A stretch of DNA of 64,000 nucleotides from an uncultured Opitutaceae bacterium (lineage in GTDB: Bacteria; Verrucomicrobiota; Verrucomicrobiia; Opitutales; Opitutaceae): contig CBRAFO010000007.1 in NCBI GenBank assembly GCA_967755175.1, positions 5,633 through 69,632 of the forward strand. Reading direction: 5' to 3'. A model generated the notes under the pieces. The model searched no databases, was not told the origin of the DNA, and saw nothing but the letters and a program-made list of their open reading frames with translations. Positions 35,757 to 60,737 of the stretch are shown here, piece by piece. How positions within the stretch are numbered: the stretch's first letter is position 1; every line of letters starts with the position of its first letter. Made by a program: the position numbers and the translations under genes.

Positions 35757-37219
35757 ACTCCCGCTCCCCTTTCGGAAACCGGCTCGGTGCGATCATCGCC
35801 CTGAGCTTCGCAGTCGGACTTTGCGCCTATTCCGCCCGCGGGGCAGCGGACGCGAAGCCAGGCGGGGTCGCCGTCGGCATCCTTCCGGCCGACAAAGATG
35901 CCCAGCGAGAATTCCCCCACGCCCTCATTCCCGATATGCTCGCAGACCCGAGCATCGTGGACATCGACGGCACCTTCTACTGTTATGCCACCACCGACGG
36001 CATGGGCAAAGGACTCGCCACCTCCGGACTCCCGGTGGTCTGGAAATCCAAGGACTTCCTCAACTGGAGCTTTGAAGGCTCGATTTTCCCGCCCGGCTTT
36101 GACGTCAAATATTGGGCGCCGAGCGCGCCCGTGAAAAAGGACGGCCGCTATTATCTGTTCCCTACGCTCGACAATCGGGTCACCGCCGTCGTGAGCGATT
36201 CGCTGGAGGGGCCCTTTCTCACGTTGGACGGAAAAGAAGTCCGCAAGGGTTCCGGCTGGAGCCAGTTTCCCACCTACTTAAAGCATCCGATCGATGCCGA
36301 AGTTTTCCGCGAAGACGACGGCCAATACTACATGGTGCTTTCGAGGCGCATGATCGCCAAAATGAACCGGGATTTCACCGCGTTCGATGGCGCCCCCATC
36401 GAAATCAAAACGAAACGCGGCGGATATTCGGAAGGCCCCGCCGTGTTTAAACGCAACGGCATCTACTACTACCTCTACACGTTGGGCGGCGGTGATGTTT
36501 ACCAATACGCCTACATGATGAGCCGCAAGTCGGTGCTGGGGCCGTGGGAAGGGCCGGAACAAGACATCATCGCCACCACTGACCATAAGCAGGGGATCTT
36601 CGGCCCCGGACACGGCTGCTTCTTCAATCTCCAGGGTTCGTCGCGTTGGTTCTTCGTTCATCTCGACTACGGCCGCGCCAGCACGAACCGCCAGATCGTG
36701 GCCGTGGAGATGCACTTCAACCCCGATGGCACGATCCAGCCGATCCAACTGTCCCTCCATGGAGTGGGGGCGATCCGCACCGATTCTCACTACGACCATC
36801 CCAACCTCGCGCTGGGTGCCACCGCGACCGCTTCCTCCACTCTGGCCGATTTCCGCGTTCCGCCCGGCGCCGATCCGACACTGAACCGGATTGAAATCTT
36901 CTCGCCCGCTAACGCACTGGATGGCTCGAACGGCAGCCGCTGGATGGCCAGCGAGACCGACACCAAAGCCTGGTATCAGCTCGACCTCGGCAAGGTCTGC
37001 AAGGTCGAGCGAACCGAACTCTATTTCGTCAAACCCACCGTCGGTCACGCCTATCGCCTCGAATCATCCATCGACGGGAAAACCTGGAACCCCTGCGGCG
37101 GCCACGAAGACATCAACGTGAAGTCCCCGCACACCGATACCGCGATCGGTCAAGCGCGCTACCTGAAGCTTACGTTGCTCCAAGGCACGCCGGGTCTCTG
37201 GGAGTTCCGCGTCTATTGA
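35753..37219 (+). CDS. GH43 with C-terminal F5/8 type C (CBM32-like) domain
   Basis: LADPSI, WAPS, PIDAEVF, SEGP, GPGHG; NLALG..A.ASS..NALDGSNGSRW..WYQLDLG. Confidence 0.85.
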   Translation: MNSRSPFGNRLGAIIALSFAVGLCAYSARGAADAKPGGVAVGILPADKDAQREFPHALIPDMLADPSIVDIDGTFYCYATTDGMGKGLATSGLPVVWKSKDFLNWSFEGSIFPPGFDVKYWAPSAPVKKDGRYYLFPTLDNRVTAVVSDSLEGPFLTLDGKEVRKGSGWSQFPTYLKHPIDAEVFREDDGQYYMVLSRRMIAKMNRDFTAFDGAPIEIKTKRGGYSEGPAVFKRNGIYYYLYTLGGGDVYQYAYMMSRKSVLGPWEGPEQDIIATTDHKQGIFGPGHGCFFNLQGSSRWFFVHLDYGRASTNRQIVAVEMHFNPDGTIQPIQLSLHGVGAIRTDSHYDHPNLALGATATASSTLADFRVPPGADPTLNRIEIFSPANALDGSNGSRWMASETDTKAWYQLDLGKVCKVERTELYFVKPTVGHAYRLESSIDGKTWNPCGGHEDINVKSPHTDTAIGQARYLKLTLLQGTPGLWEFRVY

Positions 37220-39400: not shown

Positions 39401-39763
39401 ATGGCCCCCAATCCATGACCACGACCCTACATTCCTCTCTTTACGATGGAGTAATGGCAGTTGCATTTTTATTAAAATAACCTTGCGGCGTAATGAAACG
39501 ATTTTGCATGGTATGTATTCGTTGACCTTATATGCGATCATACCCCGCGTTTTCTGTTATTTGTGAAATGCTTACATAGCGTGCTCATTCGTAAGCAGGC
39601 ATATTTACGGCCATAGGAGTCTGGCATCGGCTATGAATATGACCTGCGCCGCCTCCTCACGGGAGGCTTGGTCATCTCGGAAACCGCGCTCCGGAAAACT
39701 CGCGACTCAGTGACCCAAACCCCGACTCGTTCCAGATCCCCCATTCATTTTTTTCACCACCCC

Positions 39764-41695
39764 ATGACATCATCCCCCACAGTCGGCACTCCCGGTAAAA
39801 TCGTTCGTGCTGCCATCCATCCCGCGATCGGCATCGCCCGGGTCGGCAACAGCCCCGAGGAGTTCTACATCGGCCCTGAAGTCGCCGAGCCCGCTCCGAA
39901 GCCGCCCGGCTTTTACAAGGACGGCACGGGCGCGCTTAAACGCGAAGCCGCGCTCTTCCGCGTCTATGGTTATGATGCCGCTGGCAACGTCGTCGCCGAA
40001 CTCAACGCCGCCAACGCCGACATCACCTGGACCGCCCACCTCGCGAACGAGAAAGCCGCTTGGTATCAGTTCCAGATCGCCCTCGACATCCCTGAGGCGA
40101 ATCTCCCGCCGCCCGCCATCGATCCCTCGCTTCGGCGCAACTCCAACTTCTACGGCCCGGCCCGCCGCGAACTGGTCATCGATCCCGGCGCGATCTCGAT
40201 CCACGGCGCCAGCCAGTCCGGCGCCAGCTACCGGTTTGATCGCGGGCGCTTCTGCGGGAAACCGGTTTACCTGGGCGAACTCCGCACCGATGCGGCCGGC
40301 CACCTCATCGTCCTCGGCGGGCACGGGCACTCCGCATCCTATGACGGCAAACCCGCGGTCACCTTCGCGAACAACGATGGCTGGCATGACGATGTCGCCG
40401 ATGGCCCGGTCACCGCGACGGTCAAGATCGACGGACACGTAATCCCCTGCGAAGGCGCCTGGGTCGCGGTCGCCCCGCCCAACTACGCCCCCGATCTCGT
40501 GACCGTGCGCACGATGTATGACCTGCTCCTCGCGCTCTTCGTGGACGCCGCTTGGCTAACTGCGCCCGCGACCGTGTCGTTCACGAACGACATCTTGCCC
40601 ATCCTCCAACGCCTCTCCGGACTCGAGTGGGTCAACTCCGGCTTTGCGACGGGCTTCGGCTGGGGTTCGCGCCAGTATTTCGGCGACCCGGTCTATTTGA
40701 GGAAGCTTTCGCAAAAGCCGACGACCGCTCCCGACGGCACCGTTAACGACGAGTTCGGCGAGCTGCGCCGGCAGATCAATAACTCCTTCCGCGTTTACGA
40801 ACGCGACGGCATGTCGCCCGTTCCCTGGCCCTGGATTTATGGCGACGCGATGAGCATCCCCGCGTCCTCTCCGCGCCAATACAACGCGCTCTCCTCTTTG
40901 CAAATGGGCCTGCTCGCACGCTGGGTGAAGGGCGATTTTGTGGACGACTACGGCACGACGCCTCCGCCGCCCCGCAACATCGCTCAGGTGCCGCTCGCGC
41001 AACAGCCCGCCATGCTCGACCGCGCCGCCCTCACGTTCTGTCTGGCCGATGCGTTTCATCCCGGTTGCGAGATCACCTGGCCGATCCGCCAGCTCTCGAT
41101 GTTCTCTGCGCCTTTTCGCATTCGTCACCGTCCGCCAGGCGAACCGGAGCCCGACTATGGTCCGCAACTCACACCCGCCATCGCGCTCAGCCCCGGCGGA
41201 CCCGTTTACGCACAGGGCCCCGGCGGACTTTCGCGTTGGATGGCGGTGCCTTGGCAGACGGACACGGCGAGTTGCCAAAGCGGTTACGACAGCGCCTACG
41301 ATCCGCTCATCCCGACCTTCTGGGCCGCGCGCGTTCCCAACCAGGTGCTCACCCAGGAGGATTATCAGATCGCCACCGATCCCGCGCGTCCTCAGGCCGA
41401 GCGCCTTCGCGCCTTTAACAACCGCCCCAAGTGGATGCGTGTTCTCGCGAAAAACTATAAGGTTTATATCAACCAAATGGTTTCCGACTTCGGCAAGATG
41501 GGCGTGGTCGAGACGCATGCCAATCACGGCGACCCGCTGCTGCCGCCCTTGATCCTCGTCGAATCGAAACCCGGCGCGATTCCGGCACCTCCGGCCACCT
41601 CGCTGAAGTCGGCTTCGTTAACCGCAGCCGTGCCTGCCGAGACCTCCGGCGTCCACGAGGCACCGTCGGACAAGATCCACCGGCTCCATCGCTGA
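39764..41695 (+). CDS. lodA: LodA/GoxA-family CTQ-dependent amino-acid oxidase
   Basis: IHPAIGIARVGNS, GWHDDVADGPV, APPNYAPD, AFHPGCEITW, PWQTDTASC..FWAARVP; symbol is family-level only, substrate unknown. Confidence 0.92.
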   Translation: MTSSPTVGTPGKIVRAAIHPAIGIARVGNSPEEFYIGPEVAEPAPKPPGFYKDGTGALKREAALFRVYGYDAAGNVVAELNAANADITWTAHLANEKAAWYQFQIALDIPEANLPPPAIDPSLRRNSNFYGPARRELVIDPGAISIHGASQSGASYRFDRGRFCGKPVYLGELRTDAAGHLIVLGGHGHSASYDGKPAVTFANNDGWHDDVADGPVTATVKIDGHVIPCEGAWVAVAPPNYAPDLVTVRTMYDLLLALFVDAAWLTAPATVSFTNDILPILQRLSGLEWVNSGFATGFGWGSRQYFGDPVYLRKLSQKPTTAPDGTVNDEFGELRRQINNSFRVYERDGMSPVPWPWIYGDAMSIPASSPRQYNALSSLQMGLLARWVKGDFVDDYGTTPPPPRNIAQVPLAQQPAMLDRAALTFCLADAFHPGCEITWPIRQLSMFSAPFRIRHRPPGEPEPDYGPQLTPAIALSPGGPVYAQGPGGLSRWMAVPWQTDTASCQSGYDSAYDPLIPTFWAARVPNQVLTQEDYQIATDPARPQAERLRAFNNRPKWMRVLAKNYKVYINQMVSDFGKMGVVETHANHGDPLLPPLILVESKPGAIPAPPATSLKSASLTAAVPAETSGVHEAPSDKIHRLHR

Positions 41696-41704
41696 ACGTT
41701 TCGC

Positions 41705-42877
41705 GTGTCCACCGTTTCCTCCACCTATGACGCCGTCGTGATCGGCGGCGGCCCTGCCGGGTCGGCCGCCGCACTCACGCTTGCGCGTGCCTGCTGGCGC
41801 GTGTTGCTGGCGGAGACAGTGAGCACGGTGCCCTTTAAAATCGGCGAGTCACTCCCGCCGGCGGTGCGTCCGCTGCTCCGTGATCTGGGCATTGATTCAT
41901 GGATGCTCACCAACGACCACCTCCCGGGTCCCGGCACGGTCGCAGTCTGGGGCGGAGACACGCCGGTGGAGCGTGATTTCATCCGCGATCCCCACGGCTC
42001 CGGTTGGCATCTGGACCGCCCCAAATTCGACGTTGATCTCCGCGCAACCGCCCGGGCGGCGGGAGCCGACGTGCGGACCGGCTGTGCCTGCATTGGCGCC
42101 GCCCGGGGCACGCCGTCCGCGCACTCGGACTGGGACCTTCGGTTCACGGCGGAGGGTGGGGTGTTTCAGGTCTCCACGCCTTGGGTAATCGACGCCACGG
42201 GACGCCGTGCCCTCATTGCCGAACAAAACGGCGCTCCGGGCGAACGTGACGACGCGTTGGTTGCTTTCTGCGCCGTTCTGCCGGCCTCATCGAAAACGAC
42301 CGACGCGCGCTCCTGGGTCGAGTCCGTGGAGGACGGTTGGTGGTATGTGACGCGCCTGCCCGACCACCGTCGACTCGTGGCGTTTTTTACCGACGACGAT
42401 CTGCCGGCCGCTCGCGAAGTGAGCACGACCGCTGGGCTGACCCGCCGTTTGGCCGACACTCGCCATGTGGGTTCCGTCGCTGGCTTAACCGGTGACGATT
42501 CAATGGACCGCGTGCGGCGCTTTCCGGCCGGCAGTGTGTCACGGCGTGTGTTTTCCGGCGAGGGCTGGCTCGCGGTCGGCGACGCTTCGCTGGCGTTTGA
42601 TCCGCTGTCGTCGCAGGGAATTTTCCATGCGCTCTACACGGGGTTGCGCGGCGCGCAGGCGGTGATCTCCCGCGCCGGTGGCAACGACACTGCGTTGTCC
42701 ACTTGGGATGACCGCTTGCGTTCGATTCACGCCGCCTACCACAACCACCTCGCTCAATGCTACCGGGCCGAGACGCGTTGGGCAGAGTCCCCGTTTTGGC
42801 AGCGTCGCCACGACTCAGGCGCAGTCGGTGCGCTTCGCACGGAAACCTCTGCAGCCGATCTGTCCGCAGCTTTTTGA
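41705..42877 (+). CDS. lodB: LodB/GoxB-family flavoprotein (CTQ maturation)
   Basis: DAVVIGGGPAG, KIGESLPP, GWHLDR..FD, VIDATGR, AVGDA..AFDPLSSQG; 9 bp after lodA. Confidence 0.9.
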   Translation: MSTVSSTYDAVVIGGGPAGSAAALTLARACWRVLLAETVSTVPFKIGESLPPAVRPLLRDLGIDSWMLTNDHLPGPGTVAVWGGDTPVERDFIRDPHGSGWHLDRPKFDVDLRATARAAGADVRTGCACIGAARGTPSAHSDWDLRFTAEGGVFQVSTPWVIDATGRRALIAEQNGAPGERDDALVAFCAVLPASSKTTDARSWVESVEDGWWYVTRLPDHRRLVAFFTDDDLPAAREVSTTAGLTRRLADTRHVGSVAGLTGDDSMDRVRRFPAGSVSRRVFSGEGWLAVGDASLAFDPLSSQGIFHALYTGLRGAQAVISRAGGNDTALSTWDDRLRSIHAAYHNHLAQCYRAETRWAESPFWQRRHDSGAVGALRTETSAADLSAAF

Positions 42878-42918
42878 TTTTCCCTTTCCTCGCTTCACTC
42901 GCACCCCGTCCCACTCCT

Positions 42919-45900
42919 ATGAAACCACGTCCCCGCCGTTCCTTCGGCCCATCCTTGGTGATGTCCTGTTTGTTCGCCTGTTTTGCCTCGGTGGCAGCTC
43001 AGGCTGTCGCGGCTGAATCGAGTTCCCCCACGACCGTTTTTGCCGATGTCGTGGCGCTGGATCAGCCGTTCATGTTCAACCGCCTCGGCGCGGCGCAGCC
43101 CCAGGGCATGATCTTCGCGCTGGCCGGCGACATCGTTCCGATGGAGGCGGGGCAGGGGATCTCGCCCGGCAATGTCATGCTGCGAAAAGACAAACGCGCC
43201 CGCCCGCTCGTGCTGCGCGTCAACGCCGGCCAGTTCCTCGAAATTCGTTTCACCAATCTCCTCGCGCCGCAGCCCGTTAATCCGGCCACCAGTGGTGCGA
43301 TCACTTCGCTGCAACCGGTCACTCGCTCGGCCGGCGTGCACATCACCGGCATGGAACTCGTTTCGGTGACGTTGCCCAACGGCCAGGTTCAGCCCGGTAT
43401 CGCCAGCGACGCCACCTGGGTGGGCGTCAACCCCGACAGCCTCGCCGCGCCCGGCCAGCAACGCATCTATAAATACTACGCGAAGGCCGAGGGCACGTTC
43501 ATGCTCTACAGCGCGGGCGGCGATTGGGCCGGCCAGTTGCAGGCCGGTTTGTTCGGCGCCGCCACGGTGGAGCCGACCCATGCGCAGTGGTATCGCAGCC
43601 AGGTCACCCACGACGACCTCGAACTCGCCGCCTATCGCGTTGAGCCGACCAAGGACGGACGTCTGCGAGTTCCCGGCCGCGACGATCTTACGTTCCAACG
43701 CAAGACCGACCGCGACGGCAAACCGCTCACCGTCACTACCGAAGACGGCGAATTGAACCTCTGGAGTTTCTGGACGCCCGATTCCTATCAGCTGGGTGAG
43801 CAAAAGACGGACGTGATCATCCGCCGTGACCGCGTCTTCACGCCCGACGGTCGCCCGCTGGTCGATTACAACGCGGTCTATCCTGCCGGCCATCCGCGTG
43901 CCGGCCTGCCCATCCTGCTCATGACCCGCAGCCTCGCCGACGGCCGCGACGAATTGATCTCCAGCGACCTCACCGCGATCATTACCGGCCCGGGTGGCGG
44001 CAATTTTCCATTCACCGAAAATGGCCCTGGCTTTACGCAGAATCCGACTTACCCGGGCCGTCGTGAACCGTTCCGTGAGCTCACCATCATGTATCACGAG
44101 AGCTTCGGCACCGTGCAGGCGTTTCAGCAGTTCAACAACCCGCAGCCGCTCGCCGCCGTGCTCGGCGCCGGCACCGATAACTTCGCGATCAACTACGGCT
44201 CCGCCGGCATCGGCGCAGAGGTGCTCGCCAGCCGTCTCGGCGTCGGTCCGATGGGCGCCAAGGAGTCCGTCGATCTCAAGTTCGAGGAGTTTTTCCTGAG
44301 TTCCTGGGCCTGCGGCGATCCCGCCATGGTCGTGGACGTTCCCGCCAACGCGCCCAACCAGACCGTGACCGATCCGGCCACCGGTTCGCAGCAGATCAAC
44401 TCGCTCATCACCAACGGCAATGCCGCCGCGTTTAAGCCGCTCTCGGGCAAGAAAGCCACCAAGGCCTACTATCCCGACGACCCCTCCAACGTTTACCACA
44501 GCTACATCCGCGACCGCGTGACGATGCGCGTGCTTCACACCGGCGGCGGCATCACCCACGTGCATCACTTGCACGCGCACCAATGGCTGCGTTCGCCCAA
44601 CAGCGACGACGGTCACTACCTCGACAGCCAGATGATCACCCCGGGCTCCGCCTACACGATGGAGATCGCCCACAACGGCAGCGGTAACCTCAACGAAACC
44701 GTCGGCGATTCGATTTTCCACTGTCACTTTTATCCGCACTTCGCCAGCGGCATGTGGGCGCTGTGGCGCACCCATGATGTCTTCGAATCCGGCACCCGTC
44801 TCGACCGCGATGGTCGTCCGCTCCCCGGTTGGAACCGCGCGCTGCCCGATGGCGAGATCGTGGCCGGAACGCCGATTCCCGCCGTCGTGCCGATGCCCAC
44901 GCTGGCCATGGCCCCGGCGCCCGCCCCCGTGCGTCTTATCGACAACGGTCGTCGCGTTGAAGTCCGCCCCAAGATCCCCGCCGACCGCCACCACGAAGCC
45001 TTCTACGACAGTCCGGGGTTTCCGTTCTTCGTGCCCGGCGTCTCCGGACACCGCGCTCCGCATCCGCCTCTCGACATGGCTTGGGAAGAATCCGCCCCCG
45101 GCGTTCCCTCCCACGATAAAGACGGCAAGCTGATCTACCTGGATGGCGGCCTTCCTCGTCACCAGGTGCTCGACGGCACCATCGTCCACGAACTGCACAC
45201 GCGCTGGGATTTCAGCAAAGACTTCCTCGTCCGCGACAAGTCCGGCAAACCCATCGCCGGCGGCCTGATCGCCTTCGAACTCCCCGAGGATGGCACCGCC
45301 ATCGAGAAAGCCGCGATGGCCGCGACTTCGACTCGCACCCGCGCCTCGGTTCTCCCCAACGGCGACCCCGGCAACTTTACGCTCAACGGCCTGCCTCCCG
45401 CCCACGGCGCGCCCTTTGCCAACCCCAGCGTCGATGAGAACGGCAACGCCCAGATCAACGTCCGCCGTTATCAAGGCGCCGCGATCCAGACCGACGCCGT
45501 GCTCAACAAGCAGGGGTGGCACTTCCCGCAGCAGCGCATCATCACGCTCTGGCAGGACGTGAAGCCCACCATCAGCGGTGACCGCGCTCCGCAGCCCTTC
45601 TTCTTCCGCGCCAACACCGGCGAGACGGTCGAATTCTGGCACACCAATCTCGTGCCCGATTACTACGATCTCGACGACTTCCAGGTGCGCACCCCGACCG
45701 ACATCATCGGTCAACACATCCACCTCGTGAAGTTCGACGTGCTCGCCTCCGACGGCGCTGGCAACGGCTTCAACTACGAAGACGGCACCTTCAGCCCCGA
45801 CGAGGTCCGCACCCGCATCGACGCGCTCAACCTCTCCGGCGGTCTCCACGTCTTCGATCCCCGCACGCAGTTTGCGGGCAAGAAGCAGCGCACACTCACC

Positions 45901-48900
45901 GCAAAACCCGCCCCGGCTGTTTTCGGTTCCGCTCCAGCCGGACAAGACTGGGCGGGCGCGCAGACCACCATTCAGCGCTGGGGCATCGATCCCGTGGTTA
46001 ACAACCTCGGCGAAGATCGCACCCTCCGCACGGTCTTCACGCACGACCATTTCGGACCCTCGACCCACCAGCAGGCCGGCCTCTACGGCGGCCTGCTCGT
46101 CGAACCCCAAGGCTCCAAATGGTATGACCCCATCGCCGGCGGTCTTCTCTACGACACGACGAAGCGCAGCGACGGCGGCCCTACCTTGTGGCAGGCCAAC
46201 ATCGTCACGGCCAACCCGGTCGACAGCTACCGCGAGTTCGCCATCGAGTTCGGCGACTTCCAACTCGCCTATGGCCCCGGCAGTCCCTCGAAGCCCGGCA
46301 CGCCCAGCACCCCGCTCTTCACCACAACCACCACCTCCACCTTCCCGGTTCCCCTCAAACCGGGCAAGGTCACGGCCGCCGTCGCATCAATCTTTGCGAC
46401 CAACGGCGTCGTGTTCGCCAACGACCACGCGATCCTTGAACAAGGCAAGACGTCCGGCGAGTGGCTGTTGACCTATCGTCCGGCGAAGGACGTTGCGGAG
46501 CGCTATCGTCTGGTGCCCACCACCGCCACCGCGAGCCCCGCGCTCTACGCGGTGTATCCGCTGGATCAGCCGCACTCGTGGGTATCGTCCACGTTTGCGA
46601 TCAACCCTGCGCCGGTTGACGCCAACAATCAGGTGAGCGGTGCGCCTTATCCCACGCTCATCAGCGTGCCCACGCCCGGCACCTTCTCGCTCAACTACCG
46701 CAACGAGCCGATTCCCTCCCGCGTGTGGGACCCCGTGAAGCAACAGCCCGCCGCCGGCACCGCCGGCGACTTGTCGTTTGCCTACGCCTCGATTCCGCGC
46801 GCCGATGTCCGCCTGAATCAGCAGCCGATTCCGGGCACGGCGATCAATCCCTCCGACCCGACCAGCTTCACGTTCCCGGCTAACATCAACCCGACCGTCA
46901 ACGGCCCGACGACCTCGGTTGGCGACCTCGGCAAGGTGCAGCCCACCGATCCGTTCACCCCGATGTTCCGCGCCTACGCCGGCGACAAGGTTCAGGTGCG
47001 CACCCTCGTGGGAGCGCATCAAAACCCGCACTTCTTAAGCATCGACGGCGTCAGCTGGCTCTTCGAACCCGGCAATGAAAACTCCGGCTATCGCAACAAC
47101 CAGCCGATGGGCATCTCCGAGCACTTCGAGATGAACTTCACGCTGCCGCGCGCCACCGAATCGACCGCCCTCCCGTTCGCCGATCATCGCTACGAGGCGA
47201 GCGCCGGTGTCGATGGCGTCACCAACGGCATCTGGGGCATCCTCCGTTCCTACCAACAACAGGTTCCGGAGCTCGTTCCGCTGCCCAACAACACTCCGCC
47301 CGCCAACGCGCCGCTGGTTGCCGAGATCAAACCTCCAGCCAACGCCAAAATCCGCCGTATCCACGTCGTGGCCACGACGGTGCAGCAGGCGACGGGCGGA
47401 GGATTGGTCTATAACTCCCGCGGACAAACGACTGCGCTCAATCCCGCTCAGATCAACACCGCGCTGCCGATCACCGATCCCGACGCCTTGATCTATGTGC
47501 GCGCCGAGGACCTTGATCCGACCACCGGCAAGTTGATCCATCCGGGGCGCATCGAGCCGCTCATCCTGCGCGCCGCCGCCGGCGAGTGGATCGAACTCAC
47601 CCTCACGAATAACTTCCAGCCGTCCGCGCAGCCGGAAATCTTCGCGACCCCCGTCGCCGCGTCGTCTCCCTTCGGACAGGGTCCTGTCGCCGCCGTCCCG
47701 CCGATCACGTTGCTCACCTCGCCCAATGTCGGCCTCAATCCGCAGGTCGTCGGCTACGACATTACCCGAGCCAATGGCGTGAACGTCGGCTTCAACCCGA
47801 CCGTCACCGTCGCGCCCGGCCAGACGTCCAAGCCGGTCTATTGGTATGCCGGTGCGCTCACCGTCGCGCAGGATGGCAGCTTCGTTGCTACTCCGATAGA
47901 GTTTGGCGCCATCAACCTCACGCCGTCCGACCCGCTCCAGCAGCATACGTTGGGCTTGGTTGGCGGACTCGTGATTGAACCGGTGGGATCGACCTGGACG
48001 GAAGACGTTAACCAACGCGCATCCGCCACCGTCACCAAGGCCGATGGCACCACGTTCCGCGACTTCGTCATGATCTGCCAGGACGACGTCACGCTCACCA
48101 ACGCCGCCGGCGCCCACACCGTGAACTACGGCACCGAGCCGATCGCCTACCGATATCCGACGTCGTATTTCCCCATCGTGAATGGCGGTCCGAACTTCGC
48201 GGGTGCCGATGTCACCCAAGCCACCGCGAATTCGCTGGTCGCGGCCGATCCTCAAACGCCGATCTATGTGGCCGGCGCAGGCACTCCGGTGCGCTTCCGT
48301 ATGCTCCATCCCGCCAACGCGGCCGGGGCCGACGGCGAGGTGCTCACGATCGATGGCCATGTCTTCCAGGAAGAGCCGTTTACCGACAACAGCCGCGTGA
48401 TCGGCGACAACCCGCGTTCCCAGTGGTTTGGCGCCCGCGGCGGCCATGGTGCGCGTGATCGTTTCGATCTCGTGCTCCCCAGCGCCGGCGGCGACCACCG
48501 GGTGCCCGGCGACTACCTCTACCGCTCGCTCATCGCCCTCGGCGGCGGCGACCAGGCCGACGGCGAGTGGGGCCTCTTCCGCGTCACCGCGCCGGGCAAG
48601 GATGCCGTCATCATCAAGCAGGCCGCAGTCAACGGCTCGCTCACGCTGTCCGGTGCCAACTCGGTAAACCCCGCCACGGGCACCTTCGCGAAAACCATTT
48701 CGGTTTACGCGGGTGGTTCGACTTCCGGAACGCCGCTGGCCACTGCCAACGTCGATCCACTCACCGGCGCGTGGAGTGTGACTCAGGCGCTCACTGGCGC
48801 GGCTCCGGCCAAGCTGAGCGTGCTCTCGTCCGACGGTGGTTTGGCCACGGTCGATATCAAAGCCCCGGGTGGATTGCTAAAAGCTGCGGTGTCTGCGCCT

Positions 48901-49005
48901 GCCGAGCCCGCGCGTGAGCCTTCGCCGAAGCTTAAGCTCTACAAAAAGCGGCACGACCAGCGGTCTCGTCCGCCTGAAGCTGCCCAAGTCATCAAGAGCG
49001 AATAA
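42919..49005 (+). CDS. mnxG: MnxG-like large multicopper oxidase (~2028 aa)
   Basis: HVHHLHAHQW, HCHFYPHFASGM, QHIHLVKFD, THDHFGPSTHQQAGLYG; RRSF Tat-like leader; symbol reflects family resemblance, not function. Confidence 0.85.
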   Translation: MKPRPRRSFGPSLVMSCLFACFASVAAQAVAAESSSPTTVFADVVALDQPFMFNRLGAAQPQGMIFALAGDIVPMEAGQGISPGNVMLRKDKRARPLVLRVNAGQFLEIRFTNLLAPQPVNPATSGAITSLQPVTRSAGVHITGMELVSVTLPNGQVQPGIASDATWVGVNPDSLAAPGQQRIYKYYAKAEGTFMLYSAGGDWAGQLQAGLFGAATVEPTHAQWYRSQVTHDDLELAAYRVEPTKDGRLRVPGRDDLTFQRKTDRDGKPLTVTTEDGELNLWSFWTPDSYQLGEQKTDVIIRRDRVFTPDGRPLVDYNAVYPAGHPRAGLPILLMTRSLADGRDELISSDLTAIITGPGGGNFPFTENGPGFTQNPTYPGRREPFRELTIMYHESFGTVQAFQQFNNPQPLAAVLGAGTDNFAINYGSAGIGAEVLASRLGVGPMGAKESVDLKFEEFFLSSWACGDPAMVVDVPANAPNQTVTDPATGSQQINSLITNGNAAAFKPLSGKKATKAYYPDDPSNVYHSYIRDRVTMRVLHTGGGITHVHHLHAHQWLRSPNSDDGHYLDSQMITPGSAYTMEIAHNGSGNLNETVGDSIFHCHFYPHFASGMWALWRTHDVFESGTRLDRDGRPLPGWNRALPDGEIVAGTPIPAVVPMPTLAMAPAPAPVRLIDNGRRVEVRPKIPADRHHEAFYDSPGFPFFVPGVSGHRAPHPPLDMAWEESAPGVPSHDKDGKLIYLDGGLPRHQVLDGTIVHELHTRWDFSKDFLVRDKSGKPIAGGLIAFELPEDGTAIEKAAMAATSTRTRASVLPNGDPGNFTLNGLPPAHGAPFANPSVDENGNAQINVRRYQGAAIQTDAVLNKQGWHFPQQRIITLWQDVKPTISGDRAPQPFFFRANTGETVEFWHTNLVPDYYDLDDFQVRTPTDIIGQHIHLVKFDVLASDGAGNGFNYEDGTFSPDEVRTRIDALNLSGGLHVFDPRTQFAGKKQRTLTAKPAPAVFGSAPAGQDWAGAQTTIQRWGIDPVVNNLGEDRTLRTVFTHDHFGPSTHQQAGLYGGLLVEPQGSKWYDPIAGGLLYDTTKRSDGGPTLWQANIVTANPVDSYREFAIEFGDFQLAYGPGSPSKPGTPSTPLFTTTTTSTFPVPLKPGKVTAAVASIFATNGVVFANDHAILEQGKTSGEWLLTYRPAKDVAERYRLVPTTATASPALYAVYPLDQPHSWVSSTFAINPAPVDANNQVSGAPYPTLISVPTPGTFSLNYRNEPIPSRVWDPVKQQPAAGTAGDLSFAYASIPRADVRLNQQPIPGTAINPSDPTSFTFPANINPTVNGPTTSVGDLGKVQPTDPFTPMFRAYAGDKVQVRTLVGAHQNPHFLSIDGVSWLFEPGNENSGYRNNQPMGISEHFEMNFTLPRATESTALPFADHRYEASAGVDGVTNGIWGILRSYQQQVPELVPLPNNTPPANAPLVAEIKPPANAKIRRIHVVATTVQQATGGGLVYNSRGQTTALNPAQINTALPITDPDALIYVRAEDLDPTTGKLIHPGRIEPLILRAAAGEWIELTLTNNFQPSAQPEIFATPVAASSPFGQGPVAAVPPITLLTSPNVGLNPQVVGYDITRANGVNVGFNPTVTVAPGQTSKPVYWYAGALTVAQDGSFVATPIEFGAINLTPSDPLQQHTLGLVGGLVIEPVGSTWTEDVNQRASATVTKADGTTFRDFVMICQDDVTLTNAAGAHTVNYGTEPIAYRYPTSYFPIVNGGPNFAGADVTQATANSLVAADPQTPIYVAGAGTPVRFRMLHPANAAGADGEVLTIDGHVFQEEPFTDNSRVIGDNPRSQWFGARGGHGARDRFDLVLPSAGGDHRVPGDYLYRSLIALGGGDQADGEWGLFRVTAPGKDAVIIKQAAVNGSLTLSGANSVNPATGTFAKTISVYAGGSTSGTPLATANVDPLTGAWSVTQALTGAAPAKLSVLSSDGGLATVDIKAPGGLLKAAVSAPAEPAREPSPKLKLYKKRHDQRSRPPEAAQVIKSE

Positions 49006-50928
49006 ATGAAGTATTCGTTCTCGGTTCACGCACGCGCGGCTCGTCTGTGCGCCCTCTGTCTGGTGTGCATGGCGCTCGCGATCACGGGGGGGCGCCTCCG
49101 GGCGGAGACCACTCCGTCCGGCGGGCGCGTGGTGCATGAAGGCGTGGCGGTCGAATGCGCGCTCCTGCCCGCCGGCGCCTCGACCACCGCGCCGCGTGAA
49201 GGCGAGTCGGCGCGCGTTCGGTTTAGCATCACCGATACCACCACGGGCCAGCCGCTCACGCGGCTGAGCCCGGCCGTTTGGCTTAGCCGTCTCGGGACCG
49301 GCGGGGCCACTCCGCAGACGTGCGCCGAAAAGATCCGTGAGTTTCTGGGCGGAAGCATTTTTGCCAAAGCCGACGTGGATTTAAACACGTTCCGCGTCCT
49401 CGCCCTCAACGACGATGCGACCATCACCGTGGTCGATCCCCTCTTTGGCTTCGGCGGCACCAAGCTGCTCGCGCTGGTGCCGCTCGCCAGTCCCGGAGCG
49501 GACTGGGCGCTGAGCGCGGATGGTGCCCGGTTGTTCGTGACCCAACCCAAAGCCGGACGTGTCGCGGTCGTGGACACCGCAACCTGGGCCGTCGCCGCGA
49601 ACCTCGTCGTGGAAGGCTCGCCCGGACGCGTGGCACTTCAGCCCGATGGACATTATCTGTGGGTGGCACGCGAGGGCGGCGTCACCGTTATCACGGTCGG
49701 CGAGGGTGCGCCGGCCGTCTCTGCAACCATCGACACCGGCAGCGGCGAGCACGACATCGTTTTCTCGGCCGACAATCGTTGGGCCTTCGTGACCAATGCC
49801 ACCGCACAAACATTGTCGGTGATCGATATCCGTCGCCTCCAAAAAGTCCGCGACCTCCCGCTGGATGGGCACCCGTCCGCGCTCGCGTATTCCCGTTTGA
49901 GCGACGCCGTATATATCACGGATTCCGCCAAGGGAGAGATACTGGTGGTCGATGCGGCCAAGCACACCCTGGCCGCGCGCATTCCCGCGACACCGGGAGT
50001 GGAGAACCTGCGTTTCGCCCCCGGAGACCGTTTTGGTTTCGCGCTCAATCCGACCGGCAATCGTGTGCACATCCTGGATGCCGCGACCAACCGCATCATC
50101 CAGTCCGCCGCCGTGGACGGAGCGCCGGAGCAGGTCGCGTTTTCTGGCGACATGGCCTTCATTCGGCGCCGCGACACGGCTTCCGTTGGAATGATTCCGC
50201 TCAAGGAAATCGGAGCCGATGGCAAGCCCGTGGCGTTGGCCGAGTTCGCCGGAGGTGAGGCGGCCTTCGGCGGACGCACCTCGCTGGCCGACGGCCTGAT
50301 GGCGGCACCGGGCGAAAGCGCGGTGGTCGTGGCGAATCCGAAGGACAAGGCGATCTATTACTACATGGTCGGCGCGGCCGCTCCCATGGGAAATTTTGGC
50401 AATTACGACCGCGTGCCTCGCGCGGTCATGGTCGTGGACCGCAGTGTGCGCGAAGTGACTTCCGGTGTCTATGAGACCGCCGTCACCCTGCCTGCGGCCG
50501 GCGCGTATGACCTGGTGTTTTTCCTCAATGCGCCGCGCATCGCCCATTGCTTTAAGTTGGAGATTCCGGCGAATCCCGACCTGCCGCTTGCGCACAAAGG
50601 CACCGGCGTTCGGCTCGAACTGGTTTCCCCCGGCAAGCTGGTCGCCGGGGCGAAGGCACGCGTGGTTTTGCGGCTCAAATTCCCGCCCGGAGCGACCCAA
50701 GCCGCACCCACTGACCTCGGCTTTCGTATCATGCTCGCTCCGGGAGTCTGGAATCGGCGCAAGTCCGCCGAGTATGCGGCCGACGGCACGGCTGGCTTCG
50801 AATTCACGCCGCCGGAGGCCGGCATGTATTACATCTATGCCGAAGCTCCCTCGCTCGGCCTCGCTTTAAACCAAGCGCCCGTTCTCATTCTTGAAGCAGG
50901 TGAGCCGGTTTCTTCGCCCACGCCATGA
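49006..50928 (+). CDS. Secreted YVTN/cytochrome-d1-like beta-propeller protein
   Basis: Repeated blades (V.V.D....V...P..., WAFVTN, LSVIDI); signal peptide; abuts MCO stop (TAAATG). Confidence 0.8.
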   Translation: MKYSFSVHARAARLCALCLVCMALAITGGRLRAETTPSGGRVVHEGVAVECALLPAGASTTAPREGESARVRFSITDTTTGQPLTRLSPAVWLSRLGTGGATPQTCAEKIREFLGGSIFAKADVDLNTFRVLALNDDATITVVDPLFGFGGTKLLALVPLASPGADWALSADGARLFVTQPKAGRVAVVDTATWAVAANLVVEGSPGRVALQPDGHYLWVAREGGVTVITVGEGAPAVSATIDTGSGEHDIVFSADNRWAFVTNATAQTLSVIDIRRLQKVRDLPLDGHPSALAYSRLSDAVYITDSAKGEILVVDAAKHTLAARIPATPGVENLRFAPGDRFGFALNPTGNRVHILDAATNRIIQSAAVDGAPEQVAFSGDMAFIRRRDTASVGMIPLKEIGADGKPVALAEFAGGEAAFGGRTSLADGLMAAPGESAVVVANPKDKAIYYYMVGAAAPMGNFGNYDRVPRAVMVVDRSVREVTSGVYETAVTLPAAGAYDLVFFLNAPRIAHCFKLEIPANPDLPLAHKGTGVRLELVSPGKLVAGAKARVVLRLKFPPGATQAAPTDLGFRIMLAPGVWNRRKSAEYAADGTAGFEFTPPEAGMYYIYAEAPSLGLALNQAPVLILEAGEPVSSPTP

Positions 50929-52043
50929 TCCTTACGTCTTTCAAGCGCCTGTGTTTCGCGGTCATCGCCGTTGCCGCGTTCTTAGCGAATGCGCGTGCGG
51001 TGGATCCGATTCCCGACGTCGCGTTGCAGGATCAGAACGGTCGCCCGGTTAAGTTTTATACCGATTTGGTGAAGGGCAGGGTGGTGGCGGTGAATTTTAT
51101 CTTCACCCGTTGCACCACGGTGTGTCCGCAACTCGGCGTGAGCTCGGTCGCGCTCGCGCGACACCTGGCCGCTGCGTCGGGTGGCACGCCTCCGCCCCAA
51201 ATCATCTCGATCAGCATCGATCCGGAAACCGACACGCCGGAGCGGTTGCGGACGTGGAGCGAGCATTTCGGCACCGCGCCGGGATGGACGCTCCTCACCG
51301 GGTCCCGCCACGAAATCGACATGCTGCTCAAGGCGCTGCAGGCCTACACTCCGGATAAAAACCTCCACAGTTCGACGTTCTTCCTCGGTAACGACGCGAC
51401 TGGCGAGTGGAAGCGTGTCAGTGGTTCCGCGACTCCGGCGGCGCTGGCCGAGGCACTCAAGCAACTCGCCGGGCCGTCCGCGGCAACTCCTACGGTGGCG
51501 GAGACGAAGACGCCCGCGCCTGAACCGGTTTCGAACGCTTCGACGGCGGGAGCGGCGGCGGCGCGTTATTTTCCCGATACGCCGTTGATCAACCAGCGCG
51601 GTGAGACGGTCCGTTTTTATAGCGATCTGCTGAAAGGAAAAGTCGTGGTGATCAGCACGATTTTCGCCGATTGCGGCGGGGCATGTCCGCTCATCGTCGA
51701 GCGTTTTGCCAAGTTGCAGGCCAAGCTTGGCGACCGGGTTGGTCGCGACGTCACGTTGATCTCCATCTCCGTCGATCCGGTCAACGACACGCCGGAGCGA
51801 CTGCTCGCCTACGCCCAACATGCGGGCGCCAAGCCCGGCTGGCACTTTCTCACGGGCGAAAAGGCCAATGTGGACCTCGTGCTGAAAAAGCTCGGCCAAT
51901 ACGTGGAGTCGCGCGACGCACACTCGAACATCATCATCATCGGCAACGAGCCGACCGGACTCTGGAAAAAAGCCTTCGGCCTCTCCTCGGCCGATGACAT
52001 CATCGAGATCGTCGAGGGCGTCTTGAAGGATGACCGCACGTGA
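50925..52043 (+). CDS. Tandem SCO1/SenC copper chaperone
   Basis: FTRCTTVCP and FADCGGACP CxxxC motifs, each with ISISIDP/ISISVDP..DTPERL, W..LTG and a distal His. Confidence 0.9.
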   Translation: MILTSFKRLCFAVIAVAAFLANARAVDPIPDVALQDQNGRPVKFYTDLVKGRVVAVNFIFTRCTTVCPQLGVSSVALARHLAAASGGTPPPQIISISIDPETDTPERLRTWSEHFGTAPGWTLLTGSRHEIDMLLKALQAYTPDKNLHSSTFFLGNDATGEWKRVSGSATPAALAEALKQLAGPSAATPTVAETKTPAPEPVSNASTAGAAAARYFPDTPLINQRGETVRFYSDLLKGKVVVISTIFADCGGACPLIVERFAKLQAKLGDRVGRDVTLISISVDPVNDTPERLLAYAQHAGAKPGWHFLTGEKANVDLVLKKLGQYVESRDAHSNIIIIGNEPTGLWKKAFGLSSADDIIEIVEGVLKDDRT

Positions 52044-53439
52044 GCCGGCAGGTTGCGCGGTTATGATTCTGCTGGCGTCTCTCCTGCTGGCAGTCGCGCC
52101 CGCTCGCGCCGACGCCGATGGCGCTGCCGCCGCGCGCGGCCGGCGGATCTACCGCGAAGGCATCGCTCCCGACGGGCGGACCGTGGGTGCAATCAGTGGC
52201 ACCGCCGGGCTGGCGCTGCCGCCGGCGTTTGCGGCCTGCGTCCATTGCCACGGCGACGACGGACGAGGCAAGACCGAGGCGGGCCGTTTCGTGCCGGATA
52301 TTCGTGGCGAGACGCTCGACGTGCCCTACGTGTCGACTTTGCCGGACGGCCGTCATCGGTCACCCTACAACGGGACGAGGTTTTATACCGCGTTGACCGA
52401 AGGTCTCGATCCCTCGGGTCATCCGCTCGACGCCACGATGCCGCGTTATCGCCTGTCCGAACGGGAGGCGGCGGACCTTCTGGCTTATTTAAAAACCATC
52501 GGGCTTCGGTCCGATGAAGGTGTGACCGACGACATTATCCGAGTTGGTCTTATAATACCGATCGATCCTGCGCAGGCGGAGTCCGCGCACAGCGATCGCC
52601 AGGTCATCGCCGCTTGTTTCGACGAGATGAATCAGGCGGGAGGAATTCACCGCCGGAAAATCGAATTGGCGGATGTAGACACGAAGGCGGCAAGTTCTCC
52701 TCCCGTGCTGGTGCTGTTGACGGATGAGTTGACGGCCGCCACGCCGGTGCCAGCCCAGGTTCCGCTGCTCTGCATAACCGCTGAAGACCGGCGCGATACA
52801 GCGGGCGATGGGCAGAAGGTGTTTTCCCTTTTCCCCGGCACGGCGGAGCGCAAGCAGGCGTTGGTGAACTATGCGAAGGCGCATGATTTGGGCGCGCCGG
52901 TCGTCATTCCCGCTGACGTGAGCGACAACACGTTGAAGGTGTGGCGCGACGCCGGAGTAAAGGCGGTGCTATTGTCGTCTCTGGCGGCTTCGACTTCGCC
53001 GCTGTCCGATTTCGGCGCGCGAGCGCGAGCGCTGGGGTGGGAGCCGGGGCAATTGTGGCTCGAACGTCCGGCCACGACGGTTATCGATGCGAAGGCGTTT
53101 GTGGTGGAGCCGGTGGTATTGTCGATGCTCTCCGCCGATGCGCAGGCGGACTACCTTCGCTGGGCCGCGTTGCGCGGCCTGCCGGTGAGTGATCTCAAAC
53201 GACAATTCACACTCGTGTCGTCGGCTCGTCTGCTGGGCGAGGCTTTGAAAGGCGCCGGACGCGAATTGAGCCGGGAGAAGCTCGTAACCGCGCTGGAGGG
53301 AATCCGTTCATTTCAGCCCGGGTTGATGTCCCCGCTAAGCTTTAGCGAGCGTCGTCATACGGCGACCAATGGCGTCTACGTGGTCCCGCTCTCGACAGGA
53401 GCGACGACGCCCGCACCCGAATGGGTTCCCGTCGATTGA
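52030..53439 (+). CDS. c-type cytochrome fused to a periplasmic-binding-protein-like domain
   Basis: Signal peptide, CVHCH, DATMPRY; then EGVTDDIIRVG..EMNQAGGIHRRKIEL..SREKLVTALE (type I/BCAA SBP pattern). Confidence 0.82.
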   Translation: MTAREPAGCAVMILLASLLLAVAPARADADGAAAARGRRIYREGIAPDGRTVGAISGTAGLALPPAFAACVHCHGDDGRGKTEAGRFVPDIRGETLDVPYVSTLPDGRHRSPYNGTRFYTALTEGLDPSGHPLDATMPRYRLSEREAADLLAYLKTIGLRSDEGVTDDIIRVGLIIPIDPAQAESAHSDRQVIAACFDEMNQAGGIHRRKIELADVDTKAASSPPVLVLLTDELTAATPVPAQVPLLCITAEDRRDTAGDGQKVFSLFPGTAERKQALVNYAKAHDLGAPVVIPADVSDNTLKVWRDAGVKAVLLSSLAASTSPLSDFGARARALGWEPGQLWLERPATTVIDAKAFVVEPVVLSMLSADAQADYLRWAALRGLPVSDLKRQFTLVSSARLLGEALKGAGRELSREKLVTALEGIRSFQPGLMSPLSFSERRHTATNGVYVVPLSTGATTPAPEWVPVD

Positions 53440-53461: not shown

Positions 53462-53661
53462 TCATGTCGGCTGTGCAGGACCGTGCGCATGGATGTGTTT
53501 GCCACGGTTGTCCGTCCAGGTTTCACCCGGGTTGATCAGCGCGGGCGACTTGGATGACGCGCCGACGGCAGCATTTGGGACGGCCGAAACGAGAGGTGCG
53601 GCACCCAATAGCGAAATCAAAAGCAAGACGGCCGCCCGTTTGGACGGGAGCCGAAAACCAT
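53462..53661 (-). pseudogene. Truncated GH43_24-like gene remnant
   Basis: Signal peptide RAAVLLLISLLGAAPLVSA then INPGETWTDNRGKHIHAHG, matching the GH43_24 N-terminal motif; breaks at 53480; ATG 53661 is one base out of frame. Confidence 0.7.
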
Positions 53662-53760
53662 TCGGTTGCGGAAAATGAAAAACGCGGACTACGCGACAGG
53701 AGGAAACACATGGGAGGCTGGAGGAAAAAACGGGCCACAAGGAAAGACGCTGACGGGGCG

Positions 53761-54828
53761 TCAGGGAACGGAGCTCTGCACGGCCGTCGCCGGGCGCGAG
53801 GGCCATTTGGCGCGGAGGGCGGCGAGTTCGCTCCGGGTGATGTTCAGGATGCCGCCGTGGCGCTTTTCGCCGGCGCCAAACGAATAGGCGTCGGACGGGA
53901 GCAGCTTGAAGCCGCTCGGGTCGTCGAAGTTCGTGATAACGACCGGGAAATATCCCCCCTTGCCGGGTTTATCGACGAGGAGGGCCCACTTCTGCTCCTG
54001 GTTGAACTGGAAGAGAGCCGGGCCCTCGACCTGTCGGCCGGTGTAGCCGAGGCGGGCGATGTCGCCGATGCGCTGCCAAGGGCCAGTGAGGGAATCAGCG
54101 CCTTCGAACGTGATCTGGGTATCGCGCGAAGCGCGATAAAAGCGGTGCTTCTGCCCCTTCACCTGGATGATTTGCGTATCGATGATGTCGCCGGCGTTCA
54201 CCCCGGAGCCGTTGCGCTCGATGTAGAGCTCGGGCGGTGTGAAGGAGCGAAAGTCCTTGGTGCGGGCGTAATAGATGCGGGCCTCATTACCGCCGTCGCG
54301 CGGAGAGATCGTGGTCCAGTAAACGAAGTAGTCGCCCGTGCTCTCGTCGTAGATCGCCTCGGGAGCCCAGGCGCAGCCGGCTCCGGGGATCGCGCTCGCG
54401 ACATCAACCATCCAAGACGCGGACCAGTTCACGAGGTCGGTCGATTCCCAGAAGACCAGAGAGGTGCTGCCATGAGTTGCAGCGGCTTTCCAGCTCTTGC
54501 CGTTGGCGATGCGGAGATCGGTGGCGAGCAGGTAGAACTTTTTCCCGTCGGGCGAGCGGATGATCGATGGATCGCGCACCCCTTTGTCGCCGAGCGCGGA
54601 GACGAGGACGGGCTCGGAGTTGTTGAGGTCGGTCCAGTGGAGGCCGTCCTCACTCACGGAAAAGTAGATCTGCTCGCCGCGCGCAGACTGGCCGGTGAAG
54701 TGGACCAACAGATACGCGCTCGCCGGCTCGGACGGAGCGGCGGTGCAGGTGCCGCCCCCCGCAAAAACGAGGGCGGCGAAGGTCGCGCAAGCCGAGAGCA
54801 GGCGGATGGCAGAGGAAACGAGGGACAT
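53761..54828 (-). CDS. GH43-type five-bladed propeller hydrolase
   Basis: GVRDPSIIRSPDG, CAWAPE, IIDT, VEGP, RHGGIL; paralog of 28277 and of the N-domain of 33711. Confidence 0.87.
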   Translation of the reverse strand: MSLVSSAIRLLSACATFAALVFAGGGTCTAAPSEPASAYLLVHFTGQSARGEQIYFSVSEDGLHWTDLNNSEPVLVSALGDKGVRDPSIIRSPDGKKFYLLATDLRIANGKSWKAAATHGSTSLVFWESTDLVNWSASWMVDVASAIPGAGCAWAPEAIYDESTGDYFVYWTTISPRDGGNEARIYYARTKDFRSFTPPELYIERNGSGVNAGDIIDTQIIQVKGQKHRFYRASRDTQITFEGADSLTGPWQRIGDIARLGYTGRQVEGPALFQFNQEQKWALLVDKPGKGGYFPVVITNFDDPSGFKLLPSDAYSFGAGEKRHGGILNITRSELAALRAKWPSRPATAVQSSVP

Positions 54829-54997
54829 AGTTATTGAGGAAGAAATTTATTGAATGGGAAGGCGGTGGTAACCGTCTAGGATGGGGCGCGGAGGGCCGTC
54901 GGGGGGAGCACCGGCCGGCTTTGTCAAAAGTCGAGGTATGACGTCTTTGGTTCGGCTTTAAAGTCCGGGCGCTGTAGTTTGACGAGGTAAATGCGGA

Positions 54998-57331: not shown

Positions 57332-57365
57332 AGGGATAGGGCGGGCGGATGGGGCAGGCCGTTGG

Positions 57366-58967: not shown

Positions 58968-59052
58968 AGTAGCGGCTGCGAAGAGGAAGAGAGTGGGGGA
59001 ATCACGAATTTTATTGATACTGCTGAGCCGTGGACATGAGGGCTACCACGCT

Positions 59053-60657: not shown

Positions 60658-60737
60658 GCGAAGAAAAGGCACCGGGCCGAAACTCGGACCCGGTGCTTTG
60701 GGTAATGTGGTGAGGGTGTATGCGCCGCCTGAATAGA

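Follow-up and report, generated by a model that had tools for sequence, protein, structure and literature searches.

Does an uncultured bacterium of the family Opitutaceae (Verrucomicrobiota) encode an enzyme that oxidizes Mn(II), and which of the known manganese oxidase systems would it resemble? The question arises from a 64,000-nucleotide stretch of DNA (the window; GenBank assembly GCA_967755175.1, contig CBRAFO010000007.1, positions 5,633 to 69,632), which carries a gene for a giant multicopper oxidase related to the manganese oxidase MnxG. The product is best read as a secreted, catalytically competent long-form (Pseudomonas-type) enzyme of the MnxG family, encoded in a conserved four-gene module, whose substrate would most probably be Mn(II); we put the probability of this reading at roughly 0.58. 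Mn(II) oxidation, at somewhat better than even odds, would be the best single hypothesis for the function, because the oxidase is homologous to both characterized enzymes, retains the predicted catalytic ligands and is accompanied by the helper genes known from Pseudomonas. Both of these relatives oxidize Mn(II), as demonstrated by genetics for MnxG of P. putida and by biochemistry and cryo-electron microscopy for MnxG of Bacillus (PMC13689576).

The oxidase and its copper sites

The oxidase gene consists of an uninterrupted frame of 6087 nt. The longest open frame extends from 42757 to 49005 on the + strand; the ATG at 42919 is preferred as the start, since it yields a signal peptide, MKPRPRRSFGPSLVMSCLFACFASVAAQAVA followed by AE, that is similar in outline among close homologues. 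The features of the gene, with predicted copper roles, are:

42919..49005, + strand: mnxG-like gene for an exported giant multicopper oxidase of 2028 amino acids (aa), recognized by its open reading frame (ORF) and translation and by matches to the profile NF041487 and to the structure entry 9bxa_A
42919..43014, + strand: signal peptide, residues 1-32, with an Arg-rich n-region (RPRRS), a hydrophobic core and a cleavage-like site AVA/AE, read from the sequence
44554..44586, + strand: THVHHLHAHQW, the HxxHxH motif (from 44557), with one type 1 (T1) copper His and trinuclear-cluster His; aligns to THVFHYHVHQW of Bacillus MnxG
44719..44754, + strand: HCHFYPHFASGM, the HCHxxxHxxxxM motif (H601-C602-H603-x3-H607-x4-M612), with the T1 Cys, His and Met and two type 3 (T3) His
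45712..45738, + strand: QHIHLVKFD, the first HxH of the next cupredoxin domain (H933-I-H935 at 45715), trinuclear cluster; aligns to HIHFVKFD of Bacillus MnxG
46039..46074, + strand: THDHFGPSTHQQ, the second HxH (H1042-D-H1044 at 46042), trinuclear cluster; aligns to FHDHLFANSHQQ of Bacillus MnxG
46249..46400, + strand: Thr/Pro/Ser-rich linker, within an insertion (residues 1122-1217) without a Bacillus-type counterpart
47029..47049, + strand: HFLSIDG, degenerate copper-motif position in a later cupredoxin domain; HSFNLH stands at the same columns in the Bacillus type
48340..48360, + strand: VLTIDGH, degenerate motif; DGH versus HGH in the Bacillus type, Indioceanicola and the verrucomicrobial protein P0066
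48568..48855, + strand: C-terminal all-beta extension, after which comes a basic tail; residues 1895-1994 are without a counterpart in Bacillus-type MnxG

The motif coordinates were obtained by a regular-expression scan of the translation, and those given in a preliminary description of the locus, which had been made from the sequence alone (HxxHxH at 44557, HCHxxxHxxxxM at 44719-44754, HxH at 45715 and at 46042), turned out to be exact. The first motif reads H547-V-H549-H550-L-H552-A-H554. In an alignment of 59 family members, one of them a Bacillus-type MnxG, the residues H547, H550, H552, H601, C602, H603, H607, M612, H933, H935, H1042 and H1044 are invariant (59/59), and H549 and H554 are each found in 57 of the 59 sequences. 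As the ligands are conserved across this alignment, the copper motifs can be taken not to be chance matches. HCH occurs once in the oxidase, which points to one T1 site, and C602 is one of five Cys in the whole protein. The oxidase is thus predicted to hold a single T1 site and a single trinuclear ligand set, both complete, in agreement with what had been proposed at first. Ligands were assigned to coppers by the canonical motif rule for multicopper oxidases and by alignment to 9bxa, not from a model of the window protein. H607 aligns to position 340 of 9bxa, where the residue is Ala; the fold search names this entry ‘Mnx H340A complex’.

The order of the motifs, which had been described as that of MnxG and not of laccase, is borne out by an alignment with Bacillus MnxG residue for residue. 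The same holds for the degeneracy of the later cupredoxin motifs, HFLSIDG and VLTIDGH: Bacillus-type MnxG keeps His at those columns, and throughout the clade of the window oxidase IDG and DGH are found, as opposed to ‘LH.’ and HGH, which are kept by the Bacillus type and some long-form proteins. A Thr/Pro-rich segment does exist, but it falls short of the 46270-46560 originally given: Thr, Pro and Ser make up 44-53% of the residues over approximately 46249-46400, to which the segment is confined, compared to 35% over 46270-46560 and 23% in the whole oxidase. The C-terminal beta extension has no match to a Pfam family; it is the sole well-modelled C-terminal block, consisting entirely of strands with a predicted local distance difference test score (pLDDT) of ~80-89.

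Family assignment

The profile of Pseudomonas-type MnxG, NF041487 (1894 positions), matches the oxidase in six ordered, colinear stretches that together span model positions 5-1894. A search of all Protein Data Bank (PDB) sequences with phmmer returned a single match, 9bxa_A, the MnxG of Bacillus sp. PL-12 (E = 1.2e-78), with the copper motifs aligned; laccase, CueO and ceruloplasmin gave no phmmer match among the PDB sequences at E<=1, and the Pfam Cu-oxidase domains stay below threshold on the oxidase. The best fold match of the model of the C-terminal half, which alone was used for the fold search and serves as weak support, is likewise 9bxa, followed by the weaker candidates ceruloplasmin, factor V/VIII and two-domain laccases. 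A protein encoded on a Bacillus cereus plasmid (L032), a true Bacillus-type MnxG, reaches 1629 bits to 9bxa and just 341 on NF041487, compared to 1139 on this profile for the window oxidase. By these comparisons, the window oxidase is a long-form, Pseudomonas-like relative of MnxG.

The gene block

The oxidase gene is the third of six tightly packed genes, which are separated by intergenic gaps of 9, 41, 0, -4 and -14 nt. Its neighbors are:

39668..41695, + strand: LodA/GoxA-like quinoprotein oxidase with cysteine tryptophylquinone (CTQ), first gene of the block; LodA_N 2.5e-86, LodA_C 2e-38; 410 bits on the GoxA model, under its cut-off of 750
41705..42877, + strand: LodB/GoxB-like flavoprotein maturase; GoxB 248 bits, LodB 235 bits, both under the cut-offs; ends 41 nt before mnxG
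49006..50928, + strand: YVTN/lactonase-type beta-propeller of 640 aa; Pfam YNCE and Cytochrom_D1, TIGR02276 repeat; begins at the base after the mnxG stop
50925..52043, + strand: fused double SCO1/SenC copper chaperone of 372 aa; Pfam SCO1-SenC in two stretches, one signal peptide, C63TTVC and C250GGAC
52030..53439, + strand: exported fusion of a mono-heme cytochrome c and a periplasmic-binding-protein fold, 469 aa; Pfam Cytochrom_C and Peripla_BP_6, CVHCH at residue 70

The true start of the lodA-like gene may lie downstream of the TTG from which it is listed. The putative six-gene operon of P. putida GB-1 comprises mnxG, a YVTN beta-propeller, two SCO1/SenC genes, a binding protein with a cytochrome c domain and a SurA-domain protein (PMC11409713 Table 4; PMC8218464; PMC13689576). 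Four of these five downstream partner functions are found in the window, in the same order, a correspondence on which the preliminary description had not drawn.

Tblastn and gene calls were used to trace conserved neighborhoods. In at least five phyla the oxidase is followed by the propeller, SCO1 and the cytochrome fusion, namely in the Verrucomicrobiota (L009), Acidobacteriota, Bacteroidota (L016, L022, L024), Planctomycetota (L020) and Proteobacteria; the loci with this module include those of Undibacterium (L026), Aquimonas (L028) and genome G311 (L034). The module is also present in two loci of metagenome-assembled genomes (MAGs), L012 and L018, which are labelled ‘uncultured Heliomicrobium sp.’ at the European Nucleotide Archive (ENA); the label is distrusted, and in the tree the oxidases group with those of Acidobacteriota. 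A fused SCO1 form of ~350-370 aa recurs in L009, L012, L016, L022, L026 and L034, and Aquimonas has a single SCO1 of 193 aa. The MnxG-like gene of Aquimonas has genes for a histidine kinase and a sigma-54-dependent response regulator upstream of it (L028, 5138-7946), recalling MnxS/MnxR of Pseudomonas. A different arrangement is seen in L035, on a contig of GCA_016307145.1, whose oxidase P0007 is 66% identical to that of the window: lodA, lodB and mnxG are followed at 9287-11714 by two small unassigned ORFs and an IS110-family transposase, with no propeller or SCO1, which suggests that the block is mobile or rearranged.

The redox block is surrounded by a polysaccharide-degradation region rich in glycoside hydrolase family 43 (GH43), with at least six GH43 genes on its two sides (33711-37219 and 53761-60741). 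One of them, on the - strand at 53761-54828, encodes a short GH43-like protein. The ORF at 53554-54837 (+, 427 aa) was considered as a SurA-like gene and rejected as spurious, as it matches no family and the opposite strand encodes GH43.

Host, phylogeny and distribution

The organism, which had been called a probable verrucomicrobium, belongs to the family Opitutaceae by the identity of its TatC, which is 86% to Rariglobus hedericola and 82% to Opitutaceae MAGs. Two other observations concern the genome. The rpoB model TIGR02013 has no match in it, at a rated completeness of 99.6%, and matches in 14 of 14 control genomes; the gene may be missing from the assembly. The 1268-aa protein encoded at 2980-6786 (+) of the window belongs to a large paralogous family with conserved N- and C-terminal ends of ~100 residues (52 matched stretches in the genome G099 of the same genus), and was discarded as a taxonomic marker for its many paralogues.

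The nearest homologues of the oxidase come from an Opitutaceae groundwater MAG (89-90% identity) and from MAGs labelled ‘uncultured Akkermansia’ (78-83%). Of 300 other genomes sampled evenly across the phylum, one of them from the same genus, none gave a match at E<=1e-20. The flanking GH43 gene has no homologue in G099 either, hence no empty site was available for comparison.

Trees were rooted on the Bacillus-type MnxG L032 and included no Pseudomonas MnxG or McoA sequence. The window oxidase falls inside the long-form family, with the Bacillus type as outgroup; its clade is sister to a clade with Undibacterium, and the Acidobacteriota clade comes next. Two other verrucomicrobial proteins, P0066 and the Chthoniobacterales protein P0105, are placed away from the window clade. 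A single verrucomicrobial clade, a group named after inspection of the tree, is rejected (difference in log-likelihood 313; p = 1.8e-52 in the approximately unbiased test, p-AU). This scatter of verrucomicrobial copies indicates that the oxidase gene has probably spread horizontally, and its patchy occurrence within the phylum suggests that it was acquired horizontally, along with the lodAB pair. The GC content is 64.6% in the block and 61.2% in the rest of the window, and that of third codon positions (GC3) overlaps with the flanking genes; there is no sign of recent transfer from codon-position GC.

The family is large. A word-indexed search placed 3645 of 8000 scored candidates at E<=0.001, and at 50% identity and E<=1e-30 there are 754 clusters. 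It reaches the Nitrospirota, Anaerolineae, Myxococcota, Geobacteraceae and Candidatus Methanoperedens; 20 cluster representatives were named, Sorangium, Nitrospira, Planctomycetota, Anaerolineae and Burkholderiales among them and Pseudomonas not. A class-level scan around G311 for MnxG or McoA of Pseudomonas gave no hit over the cut-off, and a homologue search from P0329, a protein scoring 1683 bits on NF041487, returned no Pseudomonas sequence. P0428, a family member of 1685 aa, is recorded from Candidatus Methanoperedens nitroreducens, an anaerobic methanotrophic archaeon, and further members are recorded from Geobacteraceae; an O2-reducing Mn oxidase would be unexpected in these lineages. 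The Pyrinomonadaceae MAG G308 has three MnxG-like paralogues on contigs C56, C101 and C107, with open frames of 1826, 1939 and 2293 aa and unequal similarity to the Pseudomonas model.

Proposed mechanism and substrate

The oxidase could act in the following manner: The 32-residue signal peptide would direct it to the periplasm, most likely via the general secretory (Sec) route. The co-encoded double SCO1/SenC protein would be the copper donor, given that its CxxxC motifs are intact and its linkage is conserved. Single electrons from the substrate, most probably Mn(II), may then enter at the T1 copper, presumably held by His547, Cys602, His607 and Met612. The electrons would pass via the His601-Cys602-His603 triad to the trinuclear copper cluster, where O2 would be reduced to water; the likely ligands of this cluster, which would lie between two neighboring cupredoxin domains as it does in Bacillus MnxG, are His550, His552, His601, His603, His933, His935, His1042 and His1044. 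Finally, Mn(III)/Mn(IV) would precipitate as oxide. Of this scheme, the ligand set and the homology are observed; we infer the substrate and the export route.

Several observations weigh against Mn(II) oxidation by a Pseudomonas-type enzyme. The score of 1139 bits on NF041487 does not reach the curated equivalog cut-off of 3100 bits and is so far under it that the oxidase is a distant subfamily member and not an equivalog of P. putida MnxG; the other non-Pseudomonas long-form relatives tested reach 905-1683 bits. What had been said of an MnxG-type oxidase with one T1 site and a trinuclear set is supported; the subfamily of the oxidase differs from that of other verrucomicrobial copies. By the same score, the nearest to Pseudomonas MnxG are the Indioceanicola protein (1407 bits) and P0329 (1683 bits); the former lies in or near the basal branches of the tree, the latter is most similar to it, and neither is in the clade of the window oxidase, which suggests that Pseudomonas MnxG may be nearer to this basal group than to the window's clade. 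A fifth His motif of other family members is degenerate in the window oxidase, and the structure models, built from 11-sequence alignments, are poor (mean pLDDT of 42 and 52 for the two halves). As to the neighborhood, no SurA-like sixth gene follows the cytochrome fusion, the next gene being a GH43 gene on the opposite strand. No MnxS/MnxR-type kinase or regulator adjoins the block; the search for regulators was confined to its surroundings. A sigma-54 consensus was not found upstream of lodA or mnxG, and window-wide the matches number 28 versus 26.7 expected by chance; matches in a sigma-70 scan are likewise no more than chance. We know of no Mn-specific residues that could be checked. A single substrate for all family members is not assured, given the 754 clusters and the presence of the family in lineages (Candidatus Methanoperedens and Geobacteraceae, for example) from which aerobic Mn oxidation is not known.

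Among the alternatives, a functional MnxG-family oxidase with a substrate other than Mn(II) fares best and is a real though distinctly less probable possibility. Fe(II), Cu(I), a phenolic or siderophore-like compound, or the product or partner of the LodA-like enzyme would come into question, and the lodAB-mnxG block would form one extracellular oxidative pathway. The score under the equivalog cut-off and the size and scatter of a family that extends into anaerobe lineages fit such a substrate, as does the position of lodAB directly upstream, with gaps of 9 and 41 nt and a linkage that recurs in the window's and the Acidobacteriota clades; moreover, some lodA-like operons include ordinary multicopper oxidases, which has been remarked on as a hint of a functional link (PMC4417212). 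On the other hand, the sole two family members of known function both oxidize Mn(II) (PMC13689576), most lineages, Undibacterium inside the sister clade among them, have the four-gene core unaccompanied by lodAB, and no sequence feature indicates an alternative substrate. Mn(II) remains the preferred candidate.

Export route

The preliminary description had called the leader Tat-like. As a substrate of twin-arginine translocation (Tat), the oxidase would already be folded, and perhaps loaded with copper, in the cytoplasm before its passage through TatABC. The N-terminus, MKPRPRRSF with RPRRSF at 42928-42945, does contain RR followed by S-F within a leader of 32 residues, whose core is mildly hydrophobic with Gly, Ser and Cys; TatC is encoded in the genome (174.8 bits, above the cut-off), and RR is found in seven of the nine nearest homologues. 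However, neither of the Tat-signal profiles TIGR01409 and PF10518 matches the leader even at E<=10, and P-R-R-S-F-G departs from the consensus S/T-R-R-x-F-L-K. RR is present in just 17 of 120 homologues, is replaced by CR in P0004 (79% identical), and is followed by hydrophobic positions that vary among close relatives. Periplasmic SCO1 chaperones would fit copper loading after export, and the current model for P. putida has MnxG exported by Sec (PMC13689576). The Tat route is therefore doubtful, about one chance in a few, and the claim of a Tat-like leader is not upheld.

The cleavage site was placed by the AxA rule and not by a prediction tool. A lipoprotein reading of Cys17, considered from the sequence alone, is less favored, as hydrophobic residues follow the Cys and its position shifts among relatives; the leader is treated as a probable long signal peptide.

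The lodAB linkage

The conserved linkage to lodAB is the most unusual feature of the locus. Upstream of the oxidase, lodAB is limited to the window's clade and the neighboring Acidobacteriota clade (L009, L012, L015, L018, L021, L025 and L035), with two lodAB pairs in L009; it is not found at the oxidase loci of Undibacterium, Aquimonas, Saprospiraceae and Planctomycetota. A survey of 2015 reported no lodA-like gene in 34 genomes of Verrucomicrobia (PMC4417212). That lodAB and mnxG form a single undescribed extracellular redox system, instead of two unrelated enzymes travelling together, is a long shot. In such a system, the CTQ amine or amino-acid oxidase may produce H2O2 and aldehyde beside the Mn-oxidizing enzyme, and peroxide and Mn(III)/Mn oxide may cycle, for example against recalcitrant plant polymers, in keeping with a GH43-rich degrader, or as an antimicrobial. 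The linkage offers a testable hint of a partner activity.

The two degenerate later motifs, and the absence of the gene from the 300 genomes sampled from the phylum, of which one belongs to the same genus, might be read as signs of a pseudo-enzyme, of an inactive relic or of a transferred gene in decay. Such a reading is very improbable in view of the uninterrupted 6087-nt frame, the intact and invariant T1 and trinuclear ligands, the 78-92% identity to relatives in several MAGs, the intact partner genes with their CxxxC and CxxCH motifs, and a GC3 that resembles the flanking genes.

Significance

If the preferred reading is true, the Opitutaceae, polysaccharide degraders of freshwater, groundwater and soil not known for metal cycling, would join the Mn-oxidizing bacteria and be added to the organisms of interest for Mn removal filters and for natural Mn oxide formation; a groundwater MAG is the source of one of the nearest homologues. 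Full-text literature searches found no paper on Mn oxidation by a verrucomicrobium, and a survey of 2022 located Mn-oxidase homologues overwhelmingly in three other phyla. The claim that Mn(II) oxidation is new to the phylum holds in so far as no published demonstration was found, but not for the annotation: the Verrucomicrobiota MAG protein P0066 is already named ‘manganese oxidase’ by automatic annotation at the National Center for Biotechnology Information (NCBI), as is a 79%-identical metagenome protein at Integrated Microbial Genomes (IMG). The novelty for the phylum would be experimental only. The system in the window is of a known, very widespread kind, the Pseudomonas-type mnxG module, which, with hundreds of clusters at 50% identity across many phyla, has a much wider distribution than one would expect from the literature on cultured Mn oxidizers. 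Only in Pseudomonas has the function of the module been tested, and its wide spread is not a new point.

Comparison with known systems

With the three-domain laccases, CueO and the six-domain ceruloplasmin, the window oxidase shares cupredoxin domains, one T1 site and one trinuclear cluster; the order is reversed, with HxxHxH and HCH before the two HxH motifs. P0066 (‘MAG: manganese oxidase [Verrucomicrobiota bacterium]’) and P0105 from Chthoniobacterales belong to the same family and phylum, are of comparable length and conserve the ligands, but are just 47-52% identical to the window protein and represent a different subfamily.

MnxG of Bacillus sp. PL-12 (9bxa, 1227 aa), which acts in the Mnx complex with MnxE3F3, has the same order of copper motifs, and all ligands align; the layout of 9bxa, in which one domain holds T1 and HxxHxH and the next holds the two HxH, is common to both proteins. 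The window oxidase is ~800 residues longer, with at least ten insertions and a C-terminal beta extension of ~130 residues, and the later His motifs that Bacillus keeps are degenerate in it. Its neighbors are the propeller, SCO1 and the cytochrome and not the small MnxE/MnxF, at which no search was aimed. It would be a periplasmic or secreted protein of a diderm, whereas the Bacillus protein is an enzyme of the spore exosporium.

MnxG of P. putida GB-1 (PputGB1_2447, 1944 aa) is similar in size to the window oxidase, and both have a signal peptide; the window protein is colinear with the whole Pseudomonas model. The two systems differ in their SCO1 genes, which are two separate genes in P. putida (PMC11409713, PMC13689576) and fused in the window, and in the upstream end of the block: mnxG is the first gene of the Pseudomonas operon, whereas in the window it is directly preceded by lodAB.

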